From Candidatus Aenigmatarchaeota archaeon (GTDB lineage: Archaea; Aenigmatarchaeota; Aenigmatarchaeia; CG10238-14; SCSR01), in NCBI GenBank assembly GCA_039000165.1, contig JAWBTW010000001.1, positions 1 to 64,000 on the forward strand: 64,000 bases of DNA. The letters run 5' to 3'. Positions within the stretch are counted from its first letter, which is position 1; every line of letters starts with the position of its first letter. Position numbers and translations under genes: made by a program. Under the pieces are notes generated by a model. The model saw only the letters and a program-made list of their open reading frames with translations. It had not been told where the DNA came from and searched no databases. This document shows positions 42,698 through 44,054 of this stretch, piece after piece.

Positions 42698-43396
42698 TCA
42701 AATTATATTGTAAAGTCTTAGAACGATTTGTTTCGAATCTGGTTCAAACAAGCCGTATTTTTCAAGGTTTGAGGAATAAGAAATGAAAGAATCTTCATAA
42801 TCTTCAACTTTTTTTCTAAACTCTTCTATCTTATTTTCTTTTATCCATTTTCCAATCTTAATTTTTTCTCCTTCAAAGCAGCCTGGACAAAGCTCTATTT
42901 CCACATACTTTTTATCAACATGTAAAAAAGGATATTTCTTACAAACTCCAGGCCTAACAGGATAAATTTCGCATAAGTTTGAATTGCTCAGGAAAATGCA
43001 TTTACCGTCAGGCTTTTGTTTAAGAGTTAGAATATCATCAGAAACTTCAAAGTAGTGCTTGAAGGTTTGTTTTCTATCAAGGCCGATAAAAGAACAGATT
43101 TTTTCAAATTCTTCTGGAAGAACAGAAACTTTCCTTTTGATACAGCAATCGCCATCTTTTATACAATTGAAGTAAAAAAATTCTTCTTTGTTCAAAATGA
43201 GGATTGGGAGGAAAAATTCTCCTGTGTATTGCAATTTTATAAGTTTATCTCTTCCGTAAACTTTTGTTACAAGCTTACAAGCTTGTATAGCATACTTGTT
43301 TCTTGAAAAGATTGCTGGGTCATTTCGAAAAAGGCCTAATATAGAAAGAGTTCTTAGGATTTCTTCTGGTTTTATCACGACTTCAAATTTTTCCAT
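42698..43396 (-). CDS. YkgJ-family cysteine-cluster protein
   Basis: CIKDGDCC and CIFL...CEIYPVRPGVCKKYPF. Confidence 0.8.
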   Translation of the reverse strand: MEKFEVVIKPEEILRTLSILGLFRNDPAIFSRNKYAIQACKLVTKVYGRDKLIKLQYTGEFFLPILILNKEEFFYFNCIKDGDCCIKRKVSVLPEEFEKICSFIGLDRKQTFKHYFEVSDDILTLKQKPDGKCIFLSNSNLCEIYPVRPGVCKKYPFLHVDKKYVEIELCPGCFEGEKIKIGKWIKENKIEEFRKKVEDYEDSFISYSSNLEKYGLFEPDSKQIVLRLYNII

Positions 43397-43454
43397 AATG
43401 AAATTTTAGAAAAAAAGCTTTTAAGATTATAGTAACTCAGATAACTAAGTTCAG

Positions 43455-43599
43455 CGCCGAGGCTGGGATTTGAACCCAGAAGGGGCAAAGCCCCACCAGC
43501 TTTCTCAACTCACCTCCGACTCATCATTAGTCAGAGTCAAGCCATTTTATCATTGAAAGACTCAAGGCTGGCGCGTTAGCCAGGTTCCGCCACCTCGGC
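43455..43599 (-). tRNA. tRNA-Ser(TGA) with 59-nt canonical 37/38 intron (43502-43560)
   Basis: GCCGAGG/CCTCGGC acceptor, CCAGC-CTTGAG|A-GCTGG anticodon arm, long variable arm, G73. Confidence 0.93.
43502..43560 (-). ncRNA. intron-encoded box C/D sRNA
   Basis: C ATGATAA, 12 nt, D' CTGA, 3 nt, C' ATGATGA, 12 nt, D TTGA; terminal TTC/GAA stem. Confidence 0.8.
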
Positions 43600-43628
43600 T
43601 TCCTCATCTTTATTCAGACCTTGAGTCT
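43600..43628 (-). ncRNA. tRNA 5'-leader guide plus D/C' kink-loop module targeting own U34
   Basis: AGACTCAAGGT-CTGA-ATAAAG-ATGAGGA; guide antisense to pre-tRNA GCCTTGAG|TCT. Confidence 0.7.
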
Positions 43629-43694
43629 AATTAAAATATGAGTTTTAATTTTAAAATATTAGAACTTAAAAATTAAATTTATCAAATTAATTTT

Positions 43695-44054
43695 ATGAGT
43701 GCTGTTTTACAAGCTTTAAGTATATTGCTTTTGTTTCTTGGAGAAGCTTTAGCGATTTATTCTGAGATTGCTGGCGCAAACAAAGTTTTAAATGAGAATA
43801 AAATATCAAGCGAAACATTCCTTTGGTTTTTTCTTTTGATAACTATCGCAGGATTACCTTTAATAGCTGGTTATTTTTTGGGAATAATTGCTTTTAAAAA
43901 CATTTGGATAGTAAGCGTAGTTTCAATAGTTTCTATTTTGATAGTAGAACCAATTTTAGCCTATTTAATTTTTAAACAATTCCCAACTTATGGAGCGTTA
44001 ATTGGTTTAATTCTAGGTTCAGTTGGTTTGATTATAACCTTAGTTGTAAAGTAG
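43695..44054 (+). CDS. four-TM SMR/DMT-like membrane protein
   Basis: Four hydrophobic helices, 119 aa. Confidence 0.65.
   Translation: MSAVLQALSILLLFLGEALAIYSEIAGANKVLNENKISSETFLWFFLLITIAGLPLIAGYFLGIIAFKNIWIVSVVSIVSILIVEPILAYLIFKQFPTYGALIGLILGSVGLIITLVVK

Follow-up and report, generated by a model that had tools for sequence, protein, structure and literature searches.

The 59-nt intron of the only recognisable tRNA-Ser(UGA) gene in the genome of a Candidatus Aenigmatarchaeota archaeon is, probably, a gene in its own right: it reads as a dual-guide box C/D sRNA, a likely homologue of sR13 of Nanoarchaeum equitans, which would act in trans on the 16S rRNA precursor (pre-16S). The tRNA gene lies on the minus strand of the window, i.e., the whole stretch of 64,000 nucleotides that was analysed (contig JAWBTW010000001.1, assembly GCA_039000165.1). 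This reading draws on the anatomy of the intron, its conservation in relatives, the covariation between guide and target, the presence of the genes for the partner proteins and the similarity to sR13.

The tRNA-Ser(UGA) intron and its box C/D anatomy

With introns allowed, ARAGORN reports tRNA-Ser(tga) at c[43454,43599] and places a 59-nt intron at position 37/38, and under relaxed filters the Rfam tRNA model scores 42.3 bits at the locus, against a gathering score of 29. The locus is missed by ARAGORN without the intron option and by Rfam at gathering thresholds. On the minus strand, the 5′ exon (43561–43599) ends with the anticodon-loop nucleotides C32 U33 U34 G35 A36 G37 and is followed by the intron (43502–43560) and the 3′ exon (43454–43501). 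ARAGORN sets an intron of the same length 2 nt more 5′ (AGTC...TTGAG); the borders given here are preferred because they fit two 3-nt bulges and give the anticodon loop CUUGAGA, which resembles the loop CUGGAGA of the intron-less tRNA-Ser(GGA). Read by hand, the junction shows the features of a bulge-helix-bulge tRNA intron: a 4-bp central helix between exon and intron nucleotides 54–57 (C32-G57, U33-A56, U34-G55, G35-U54), two 3-nt bulges (A36 G37/U1 and A58 A59/A38) and the anticodon stem as the outer helix. The inner helix of the motif is weak, with 3 pairs, 2 of which are G-U. The genome encodes both splicing proteins, EndA (95.1 bits) and RtcB (549.3 bits).

Re-extraction by coordinate reproduced the layout proposed by the first-pass annotation, TCTTTCA/ATGATAA/AATGGCTTGACT/CTGA/CTA/ATGATGA/GTCGGAGGTGAG/TTGA/GAA on the minus strand, including the 12-nt length of both guide spacers. 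The 5′ tail UCUUUCA (43554–43560), read as one side of stem I, leads into the C box AUGAUAA (43547–43553), which departs from the consensus RUGAUGA by a G6 to A change found in 41 of 42 homologues. The 12-nt D′ guide AATGGCTTGACT (43535–43546) precedes the D′ box CUGA (43531–43534), invariant in all 36 aligned homologues. After the 3-nt loop CUA comes the C′ box AUGAUGA (43521–43527), which would form a K-loop with D′ and this loop; among the 36 aligned homologues, five of its seven positions never vary and one more shows at least 90% conservation. The 12-nt D guide GTCGGAGGTGAG (43509–43520) is followed by the D box (43505–43508), UUGA rather than the consensus CUGA in 36/36 aligned and 40/42 homologues, and by the 3′ tail GAA (43502–43504). 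Stem I could extend over 5 bp in the precursor (CUUUC/GAAAG, using intron GAA and exon A38 and G39) and over 3 bp in the excised linear intron (UUC/GAA). Stem I covaries among homologues, and the box-flanking sequences form at least five contiguous pairs in 32 of 42 copies, versus 11.8% of 2000 mismatched-flank controls. These flanks differ from one homologue to another while the boxes stay invariant.

The kink-turn cores (UGA/GA) are intact in AUGAUAA and UUGA, and able to form tandem G-A pairs. The deviation on each side still gives a Watson-Crick pair, A-U in place of G-C, and the terminal boxes qualify as those of a kink-turn. The first-pass annotation had called the two deviations compensatory, and the A-U pairing holds in 39/42 homologues; judged by this alignment, A6/U1 is a lineage-wide compensatory pair and not a private double mutation. 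The same annotation had staked its reading on conservation of the boxes in orthologous introns, and D′, C′ and D are indeed invariant or nearly so among the 36 homologues. As for chance occurrence, the box pattern as found has a single match on both strands of the whole 783-kb genome and none in 20 shuffled genomes. When relaxed, the dual-guide pattern matches twice, in the tRNA-Ser(UGA) intron and in the tRNA-Ser(CGA) intron on contig C14, versus a mean of 0.15 in shuffled genomes; the strict-consensus pattern has no match in the whole genome. The box pattern in the intron is not due to chance, and anatomy, conservation and chance test together uphold the original description of the intron as a complete dual-guide box C/D sRNA. 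Under relaxed Rfam filters, 7 of 13 weak matches are archaeal C/D families spanning the intron on the minus strand, 6 of them matching the model end to end. Since the archaeal C/D models of Rfam are built on Pyrococcus and other lineage-specific sets, it says little about class membership that all these matches lie far below gathering, the best being RF00095 with 21.9 bits against a gathering score of 45. The partner proteins fibrillarin (283.6 bits), Nop5 (231.4 bits) and L7Ae (109 bits) are encoded in the genome.

It had also been pointed out that the D box overlaps the central helix of the splice motif. The UGA of UUGA does pair with U33-G35 as well, so that, as follows from the sequence, the kink-turn and the splicing conformation would be mutually exclusive in pre-tRNA-Ser(UGA). 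RNAfold returned, for both intron and pre-tRNA, a minimum-free-energy fold (z = -2.6 to -3.0) whose 8-bp hairpin sequesters the D′ box together with nucleotides 1-7 of the D guide, and gave neither the cloverleaf with splice motif nor the kink-turn. Kink-turns lie outside the RNAfold energy model, and the fold was thus not used to choose between conformations.

The 5′ leader of the gene carries a further guide (43601–43628, minus strand), recognised from sequence and conservation. It comprises the guide AGACUCAAGGU, a D′-like CUGA, the loop AUAAAG and a C′-like AUGAGGA. The guide pairs with G30-G37 and intron nucleotides 1-3, the nucleotide five positions upstream of CUGA lies opposite U34 in this duplex, and the leader seems to guide a cis modification at U34. 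Its existence agrees with the first-pass annotation, and it is conserved, but it is only half of a C/D module (guide, D′, loop, C′) and not the full module that had been counted.

Predicted 16S rRNA targets and the likeness to sR13

The best complement of the D′ guide in rRNA or tRNA is GUCAAGCCA, with 9 Watson-Crick pairs to nucleotides 1405-1413 of 16S rRNA, in helix 44 (the numbering is anchored on fragments quoted in section 13 of PMC5389701). In this duplex, A1408 (genome position G000:C8:6454) is the partner of the nucleotide five positions upstream of D′. Within the D guide, GGAGGUGA forms 8 Watson-Crick pairs, its best such run, with the 16S 3′ tail UCACCUCC (1532-1539), in which C1535 (G000:C8:6337) is the partner of the nucleotide five positions upstream of D. 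The D guide is itself Shine-Dalgarno-like, its partner being the anti-Shine-Dalgarno tail. As a control, each guide was shuffled 2000 times and compared with the rRNAs of this genome: 9 pairs were attained by 76 shuffled versions of the D′ guide, and 8 pairs by 400 of the D guide, which makes the significance of the complementarity weak to modest from this genome alone. Across genomes, guide and target covary: at the 40 loci where both are readable, guide position 7 and 16S nucleotide 1410 are C:G in 33, U:A in 4, U:G in 3 and C:A in none. Neither guide has a useful complement in the tRNA-Ser(UGA) exons, and the sole match in the pre-tRNA is the intron's own hairpin. The most likely targets for 2′-O-methylation, as predicted from these pairings, are A1408 in the decoding site for the D′ guide and C1535 for the D guide.

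The same two regions are targeted in N. equitans, where sR13 pairs with 16S 1405-1415 and 1531-1540. The corresponding sites Am1408, verified by MALDI-MS and RiboMeth-seq, and Am1534, also verified, are stoichiometrically methylated, and Seistrup et al. (2017) proposed an assembly-checkpoint or timing role for sR13 (PMC5389701). Both RNAs are dual guides, with D′ for helix 44 (A1408) and D for the anti-Shine-Dalgarno tail. Compared by eye with sR13 as given in supplementary file 1 of Dennis et al. (2015; PMC4644070), the intron shares the blocks TGGCTTGACTCTGA, TGATGAG and GGAGGTGA (14, 7 and 8 nt), a likeness that could be due in part to convergence, given that both RNAs face conserved rRNA targets in common. 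There are also differences. The terminal boxes have G and C in sR13, according to the same supplement, and A-U in the intron RNA. The spacing from D guide to D box is one nucleotide shorter than in sR13, and the predicted target is accordingly C1535 in place of A1534: paired to 1532-1539, the D guide selects C1535 by the five-nucleotide rule. The intron RNA is always intronic here, whereas no tRNA- or rRNA-intron context for sR13 appears in the portions of the PMC5389701 and PMC4644070 texts consulted. Both lineages are DPANN with tiny genomes that lack RsmA/KsgA/Dim1; N. equitans is a hyperthermophile, and the present genome comes from hot springs. A PF00398 search of 70 family genomes (56-96% complete) found no full-length match and no true KsgA/RsmA/Dim1. 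The best match scored 36.8 bits, and all matches above 24 bits cover the N-terminal SAM-binding part only; the two PF00398 matches of any score in the present genome are a PCMT and a GCD14 protein.

Host sites of the RNA among relatives

BLAST of the locus against the 70 family genomes found the C-to-D core, 87-100% identical, in many genera. A covariance search of related genomes, which the first-pass annotation had proposed as a check, recovered the core with a sequence-only model in 49 of the 70 family genomes, or 19 of 20 when only high-quality genomes are counted; the positive genomes carry a single copy, apart from one with two. In a spread sample of the phylum, the model finds the core in 82/151 genomes at E<=0.01. 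All 66 copies examined lie within a splicing-endonuclease-type intron, 24 in tRNA-Ser(UGA) and 42 in 16S rRNA. In the latter, the same 49-nt core stands outside any tRNA and between unrelated flanks, at four sites in the last 50 nt of 16S that adjoin the targets: A1492/A1493, 1499/1500, 1513/1514 and 1520/1521. These 16S-borne introns are 93-161 nt long and lie within about 200 nt of both targets, and in the sister genera removal of the insertion at a bulge-helix-bulge-like motif restores an uninterrupted 16S. The junction scan required the spliced product to restore such a 16S, as the bulge-helix-bulge score alone favoured chance AT-rich pairings over the true tRNA splice sites; under its thresholds, 3 of 36 loci (L029, L042 and L044) gave no junction.

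Genera thus differ in where the RNA resides, and so do genomes of one genus; five hosts or sites are in use, and the within-genus differences could partly reflect 16S contigs placed in the wrong genome bin. In other genera the tRNA-Ser(UGA) intron is only 10-14 nt long, which means that the core is not needed for splicing. One genome (G010) carries a different C/D cargo in the same tRNA-Ser(UGA) intron.

Sequencing reads were also considered. No RNA run containing the locus was listed. Two runs labelled metatranscriptomic and two DNA runs were mapped on 43300-43800, and reading the resulting joints as splicing was rejected, since joints also occur in DNA runs. Joints that skip 51 and 53 nt and put 5-6 other letters in their place match the short-intron tRNA-Ser genes of relatives. 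The 51-nt joint is present in both DNA runs, the 53-nt joint only in the two runs labelled metatranscriptomic, which were rated as probably DNA, and a third joint, which replaces 82 nt by 22 letters, in one DNA run. These joints derive from relatives and are uninformative on splicing.

Proposed role, alternatives and significance

These observations suggest a model in which the pre-tRNA would be transcribed with the sRNA inside and cut by EndA at the bulge-helix-bulge motif, the D box forming part of its central helix. RtcB would join the exons and probably circularise the 59-nt intron. The freed intron could then fold its terminal C/D kink-turn, with A-U for the usual G-C in stem II, and its internal C′/D′ K-loop, bind L7Ae, Nop5 and fibrillarin, and act in trans on pre-16S rRNA. 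The D′ guide, on 1405-1413 at the top of helix 44, would direct a 2′-O-methyl group to A1408 in the decoding site, and the D guide, on the anti-Shine-Dalgarno tail (1532-1539), would direct methylation of C1535. By holding both flanks of helix 45, the guide RNA may time the last folding of the small subunit without KsgA/Dim1, as proposed for sR13.

The alternative that deserves most attention accepts an RNA pairing with 16S, and makes it mainly or only an antisense chaperone or timer of 3′-domain folding, which would keep the helix-44 strand and the 3′ tail occupied until assembly is well advanced, with weak or absent methylation. The two guides do bracket helix 45, the duplexes are short (9 and 8 bp), true KsgA/Dim1 was not found in the family, 42 of the 66 copies are part of the 16S precursor itself, next to their targets, and a checkpoint role has been proposed by Seistrup et al. 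for sR13 (PMC5389701). However, boxes, 12-nt spacers and the pairing five positions upstream of each box are preserved exactly as a methylation guide needs them, fibrillarin and Nop5 are encoded, and the counterpart sites of N. equitans are stoichiometrically methylated according to the same source, so that we consider a role confined to chaperoning unlikely. Chaperone and methylation roles are compatible with each other. It is much harder to see the box-like words as a chance by-product of an intron that merely forms a hairpin presenting the splice motif and is degraded after splicing. The predicted 8-bp hairpin over the D′ box and D guide, with its low z-score, would suit such an intron, as would two non-consensus terminal boxes. 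The idea is already contradicted by the 49-nt core in 16S rRNA genes with unrelated flanks, by the 10-14-nt introns with which other genera splice tRNA-Ser(UGA) and by guide-target covariation; the pattern is also absent from shuffled genomes, and the probability left to this reading is very small.

Equally improbable is a selfish cargo of mobile introns, kept through spread between splice-motif sites and with little or no function in the tRNA intron. Variable location between and within genera, at five hosts or sites and with one copy in all but one genome, fits such a history, as does the other C/D cargo in the tRNA-Ser(UGA) intron of G010. Yet single copies in all but one genome, presence in 19/20 high-quality genomes, near-invariant guides and guide-target covariation point to selection on the guide function itself, and part of the within-genus shifts could stem from misbinned 16S contigs. 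Least credible of all is a cis guide methylating the anticodon arm of its own pre-tRNA-Ser in the manner of the euryarchaeal tRNA-Trp intron, even though position (37/38) and kind of RNA are the same as in that case (PMC7994747): the exons offer neither guide a useful complement, identical guides reside in 16S introns of genomes whose tRNA-Ser intron is short, and the U34 job seems covered by the separate leader module.

Beyond the trans-acting dual guide, a wider scenario can be put forward tentatively, as possible but doubtful. The sR13-like guide would be the cargo of a mobile bulge-helix-bulge intron moving between the tRNA-Ser(UGA) anticodon loop and at least four 16S sites. In 16S it would serve as a cis assembly checkpoint in place of KsgA/Dim1: the guide would hold the decoding strand and the anti-Shine-Dalgarno tail, methylate them, and only afterwards be spliced out, allowing helices 44 and 45 to close. 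In tRNA-Ser, this device would have been relocated so as to act in trans.

In agreement with the first-pass annotation, the tRNA introns described as hosting C/D RNAs are those of tRNA-Trp and of N. equitans tRNA-Met (PMC7994747, PMC3491384). It knew of none in tRNA-Ser, and a literature search, which cannot prove absence in print, likewise found no C/D RNA in tRNA-Ser introns. The tRNA-Trp intron (Haloferax volcanii; Pyrococcus sR50) is likewise a complete C/D guide in a bulge-helix-bulge intron at 37/38. In Euryarchaeota it guides its own tRNA, at Cm34 and Um39 (PMC7994747), whereas the tRNA-Ser intron is without a complement in its host, including at pre-tRNA positions 34 and 39, and appears to aim at 16S. 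The 66-nt intron of N. equitans elongator tRNA-Met is described with one C and one D box, a GC hairpin and no assigned target in the part of Randau (2012) consulted (PMC3491384). The two introns have in common that they show C/D features within a tRNA of a DPANN archaeon, the tRNA-Met one being stable; unlike it, the tRNA-Ser intron has the full set of C, D′, C′ and D, two assignable targets and a different host tRNA. In a 2013 review, non-coding RNAs from archaeal rRNA introns were described as still to be sought (PMC3608112). A literature search, again no proof of absence, found no published C/D RNA in archaeal rRNA introns or in Aenigmarchaeota.

Archaeal rRNA bulge-helix-bulge introns occur in the 23S of Desulfurococcus and in the 16S of Pyrobaculum and Thermoproteales and, to our knowledge, carry homing-endonuclease reading frames or nothing recognised. 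The 16S introns of the sister genera resemble them in that bulge-helix-bulge-like removal restores the 16S, and differ from them in being short and in carrying a guide RNA aimed at the neighbouring rRNA. In eukaryotes, snoRNAs reside in spliceosomal introns, whether the host gene yields an mRNA or is non-coding, and are released by debranching and exonucleases. Eukaryotic intronic C/D snoRNAs are likewise rRNA methylation guides that come from an intron of a translation-apparatus gene and act in trans, but the host here is a tRNA intron, whose excision would fall to the tRNA splicing endonuclease.

Annotation is affected too, as these genes escape standard tRNA and rRNA tools or are misread by them, and introns at the 3′ end of 16S affect primer-based surveys of the phylum Aenigmatarchaeota. 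The tRNA-intron guides known so far are those of tRNA-Trp, which modify their host tRNA, and one proposed in tRNA-Met; here, the guide would serve the decoding site and the anti-Shine-Dalgarno tail. In archaea, it would correspond to the snoRNAs that eukaryotes encode in introns, and its conservation extends across a phylum. The alternation of this RNA between a tRNA intron and 16S introns makes the movement of archaeal C/D sRNA genes testable. It also becomes testable whether an RNA-based checkpoint, proposed so far only for Nanoarchaeota, replaces KsgA/Dim1 in reduced DPANN genomes.

A predicted dual-guide C/D RNA in the tRNA-Ser(UGA) intron

The tRNA-Ser(UGA) gene lies on the minus strand of the window, where ARAGORN, with introns allowed, reports tRNA-Ser(tga) at c[43454,43599], interrupted at position 37/38 by a 59-nt intron. 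ARAGORN in default mode and Rfam at gathering thresholds return no gene at this locus; with relaxed filters, the Rfam tRNA model scores 42.3 bits there. Re-extracted by coordinate, the intron (43502-43560, minus strand) reads, from 5′ to 3′, UCUUUCA, the C box AUGAUAA, the 12-nt spacer AAUGGCUUGACU, the D′ box CUGA, CUA, the C′ box AUGAUGA, the 12-nt spacer GUCGGAGGUGAG, the D box UUGA and GAA, exactly as parsed box by box in the first-pass annotation. The borders proposed by ARAGORN lie 2 nt further 5′ than those of that parse, with equal length. The borders of the parse each cut after nucleotide 2 of a 3-nt bulge and give the anticodon loop CUUGAGA, which resembles CUGGAGA of the intron-less tRNA-Ser(GGA) of the same genome. 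The C/D pattern is far from chance: the arrangement as found occurs once in the 783-kb genome and in none of 20 shuffled genomes, while a relaxed dual-guide pattern has two matches versus a mean of 0.15 in shuffles, the second match being the tRNA-Ser(CGA) intron on contig C14.

A BLAST search of the locus against the 70 genomes of the family returned many matches to query positions 88-136, i.e., the C-box-to-D-box core alone. Forty loci were extracted, and the 36 that are non-identical were aligned. The first-pass annotation had tied its reading to box conservation across related genomes, and this holds: across the 36 loci, the D′ box (all four positions) and the D box do not vary, and C′ is invariant at five of its seven positions. 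Within the guides, the invariant stretches are the 3′ two-thirds for D′ and the GGAGGUG core for D. Outside the boxes, the sequences are unrelated from one context to another. A sequence-only covariance model built from this alignment finds the guide RNA in 49 of the 70 family genomes, including 19 of the 20 with a completeness of at least 90%, at one copy per genome (two in one genome). Of 151 genomes sampled evenly across the phylum, 82 have a match to the model at E<=0.01, with declining scores. The flanks adjoining the boxes form at least five contiguous pairs in 32 of 42 parsed copies (44 given) versus 11.8% of controls (n=2000, flanks combined from different loci), and C-box position 6 is A and D-box position 1 is U in 39 of the 42.

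Predicted 16S targets and the likeness to sR13

By its sequence, the intron RNA is an archaeal dual-guide C/D sRNA and, in its predicted function, of the type of sR13, a C/D box sRNA of Nanoarchaeum equitans. Among tRNA introns, C/D RNAs have been described in tRNA-Trp and, tentatively, in N. equitans tRNA-Met (PMC3491384, PMC7994747). The host tRNA offers no useful complement to either guide, and a tRNA-Trp-type guide was rejected because the complementarity to the host that defines that type is absent. Compared with all rRNAs and pre-tRNAs of the genome, the D′ guide pairs best with 16S GUCAAGCCA (9 Watson-Crick pairs), and for the D guide the best Watson-Crick run lies at the extreme 3′ end of 16S, on UCACCUCC. 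With numbering anchored on RNase fragments reported in PMC5389701 (UCAAG = 1406-1410, AC = 1534-1535), the nucleotide opposite the fifth guide position upstream of D′ is A1408 (G000:C8:6454, G000 being the source genome), and that opposite the fifth position upstream of D is C1535 (G000:C8:6337). The complementarity statistics from this genome alone are modest: among 2000 shuffled versions of each guide, 76 for D′ and 400 for D reach the real pairing length at some place in the rRNAs. Stronger evidence comes from comparison between genomes: the pair formed by guide position 7 with 16S nucleotide 1410 is C:G in 33 loci, U:A in 4, U:G in 3 and C:A in none (40 readable loci, 42 given), and the U:A cases come from three genera.

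The methylations of N. equitans 16S include Am1408 and Am1534, and the D′ and D guides of sR13 pair with 1405-1415 and 1531-1540, respectively (PMC5389701). Compared by eye, the intron and sR13 as listed by Dennis et al. (PMC4644070, supplementary file 1) have three stretches in common: a 14-nt block spanning the D′ guide and D′ box, the C′ box, and, within the D guide, the 8-nt GGAGGUGA. In the terminal boxes, the A and U of the intron correspond to G and C in sR13, and sR13 has one more nucleotide between GGAGGUGA and the D box, which explains why the predicted target here is C1535 instead of A1534. Part of this likeness must be forced by the shared targets.

The parallel with N. equitans extends to an enzyme, the near-universal rRNA dimethylase KsgA/RsmA/Dim1 of late small-subunit maturation. 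According to Seistrup et al. (PMC5389701), this enzyme is missing in Nanoarchaeota, N. equitans being without RsmA/Dim1, and sR13 was proposed to replace a protein checkpoint of late small-subunit maturation. No true rRNA dimethylase is found in the present family either: a search of the 70 genomes with RrnaAD (PF00398) gave no full-length KsgA/RsmA/Dim1, the best match scoring 36.8 bits and the highest-scoring matches (>24 bits) covering the N-terminal SAM-binding part only. The two RrnaAD matches in the source genome were rejected as KsgA/Dim1, one being a PCMT and the other a GCD14-type protein.

Host genes of the guide RNA

The 50 copies of the family are located either in the tRNA-Ser(UGA) intron (14 copies, 13 of them classified by script and one, cut by a contig end, reading into the tRNA-Ser 3′ exon) or inside the 16S rRNA gene (36 copies). 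The latter occupy the 3′ strand of helix 44 (10), the helix 44/45 linker (11), the 5′ strand of helix 45 (14) and the loop side of helix 45 (1), lying 103-197 nt 3′ of the helix-44 target and 76-144 nt 5′ of the GCGGCUGGAUCACCUCC motif at the end of the gene. In 33 of the 36, a junction restoring in register the uninterrupted 16S of the source genome, which itself has no insertion, falls within a bulge-helix-bulge-like motif. The motif comprises a 4-bp helix (4/4 pairs in 29 copies, 3/4 in 4) and two 3-nt bulges; its outer helix is weak, and its inner helix has 4-5 pairs in most copies and 3 in one. These junctions are at about A1492/A1493, 1499/1500, 1513/1514 and 1520/1521. We infer that the insertions are probably introns, because a ribosome that retained an insertion at one of these sites could not function.

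Sixteen more copies were examined outside the family; tRNA-Ser(UGA) introns hold 10 of them and 16S genes 6. Four of the 10 carry another ARAGORN name owing to extra introns and were assigned by their CUUGAG anticodon loop and serine-type long arm. In total, 42 of the 66 copies examined are in 16S and none is free-standing. The related loci are L025-L060 and L099-L106 in the family and L131, L134-L136, L138 and L145 in other families; the 16S insertions are 93-161 nt long. In L134, L136 and L145, all of family f3, the helix 44/45 linker has, upstream of the guide-bearing insertion, another one of about 70 nt that contains the word AAUGAUGA or AAUGACGA.

In the five genomes with a 16S copy whose tRNA-Ser(UGA) locus was read (G001, G002, G003, G005 and G068), this gene has a 10-14-nt intron at the same position, starting with UCYU or UUUU and ending, like the 59-nt intron, with GAA. 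The tRNA-Ser(UGA) intron of another genome, G010 (L022), holds a different 58-nt C/D cargo related to the tRNA-Ser(CGA) intron RNA of the source genome. The location of the copy varies even within genera, which suggests recent movement, a pattern that 16S contigs wrongly binned in MAGs could inflate. A 2013 review described non-coding RNAs from archaeal rRNA introns as still to be looked for (PMC3608112), and none of the papers covered by our literature search reports a C/D RNA from Aenigmarchaeota, from a tRNA-Ser intron or from an archaeal rRNA intron. Guide-RNA-bearing rRNA introns beside their own targets appear to be undescribed so far.

Neighbouring modules and proposed processing

Directly 5′ of tRNA-Ser(UGA), a leader module (43601-43628, minus strand) consists of AGACUCAAGGU, CUGA, AUAAAG and AUGAGGA. 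Its 11-nt guide pairs with G30-G37 and the first three intron nucleotides, with U34 at the methylation position, and its self-match score of 10.5 is the best of such modules in the genome. When 32 tRNA-Ser(UGA) loci were searched with a regular expression, 14 loci from several genera had the module, and in G068 the leader guide and intron nucleotide 2 change together, by eye. The first-pass annotation expected one transcript to yield a tRNA and two C/D modules. The leader guide recurs in several genera; it is a half module (guide, D′, loop, C′) and not a full C/D RNA. A transcript yielding a tRNA and two guide modules would be a reasonable reading. Further modules lie at C9:26832-26949, C6:33224-33346 (-), C8:10369-10476 (-), C4:46763-46874 and C13:14410-14514 (-). 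In all of them, as in the leader, the guide pairs with the anticodon arm of its own precursor, hand pairing selecting position 34, or 39 for Cys. The set of tRNAs with such modules is the set modified in Pyrococcus by trans-acting C/D sRNAs (PMC7994747).

Outside the window, tRNA-Ser(CGA) (G000:C14:6986-7124, minus strand) contains a second complete C/D sRNA in its 53-nt intron (core C14:7037-7083), whose D guide places C56 of tRNA T-loops at the methylation position. Trm56 (PF01994), the protein enzyme for Cm56, was not found in the source genome; Pyrobaculum aerophilum is the known case of Cm56 made by a C/D guide (PMC5372735).

The source genome (25 contigs, 783 kb, 33% G+C, 91.6% complete) has genes for fibrillarin, Nop5 and L7Ae as well as for EndA, the splicing endonuclease, and RtcB, the ligase. 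Its fibrillarin shares 91-93% identity with proteins from hot-spring MAGs labelled Candidatus Aenigmatarchaeota. Within the precursor, the D-box UGA has a second use: it pairs with U33-G35 as part of the splice motif's central helix. The predicted mutual exclusion of the kink-turn and the splicing-competent fold, already proposed in the first-pass annotation, follows from this double use. RNAfold returned neither fold. The predicted fold of the intron is dominated by an 8-bp hairpin, CUCUGACU/AGUCGGAG (43509-43534, minus strand), built from the D′ box, the nucleotides adjoining it and the initial 7 nt of the D guide. By eye, homologues keep part of this hairpin, which might mask the guide until proteins bind or might simply follow from the conserved guide sequences.

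In the proposed pathway, EndA would cut the precursor and RtcB would join the exons and probably circularise the 59-nt intron; both C/D sRNAs and introns have been described in circular form in archaea (PMC7994747, PMC3491384). The UUC/GAA stem, the A-U variant kink-turn and the canonical K-loop would then recruit L7Ae, Nop5 and fibrillarin, and the particle would methylate 16S A1408 and C1535 in trans. An additional, hypothetical role as a chaperone or in timing on the 16S 3′ domain is plausible. Because this is the sole tRNA-Ser(UGA) gene recognised in the genome, each functional tRNA-Ser(UGA) made would release one guide RNA.
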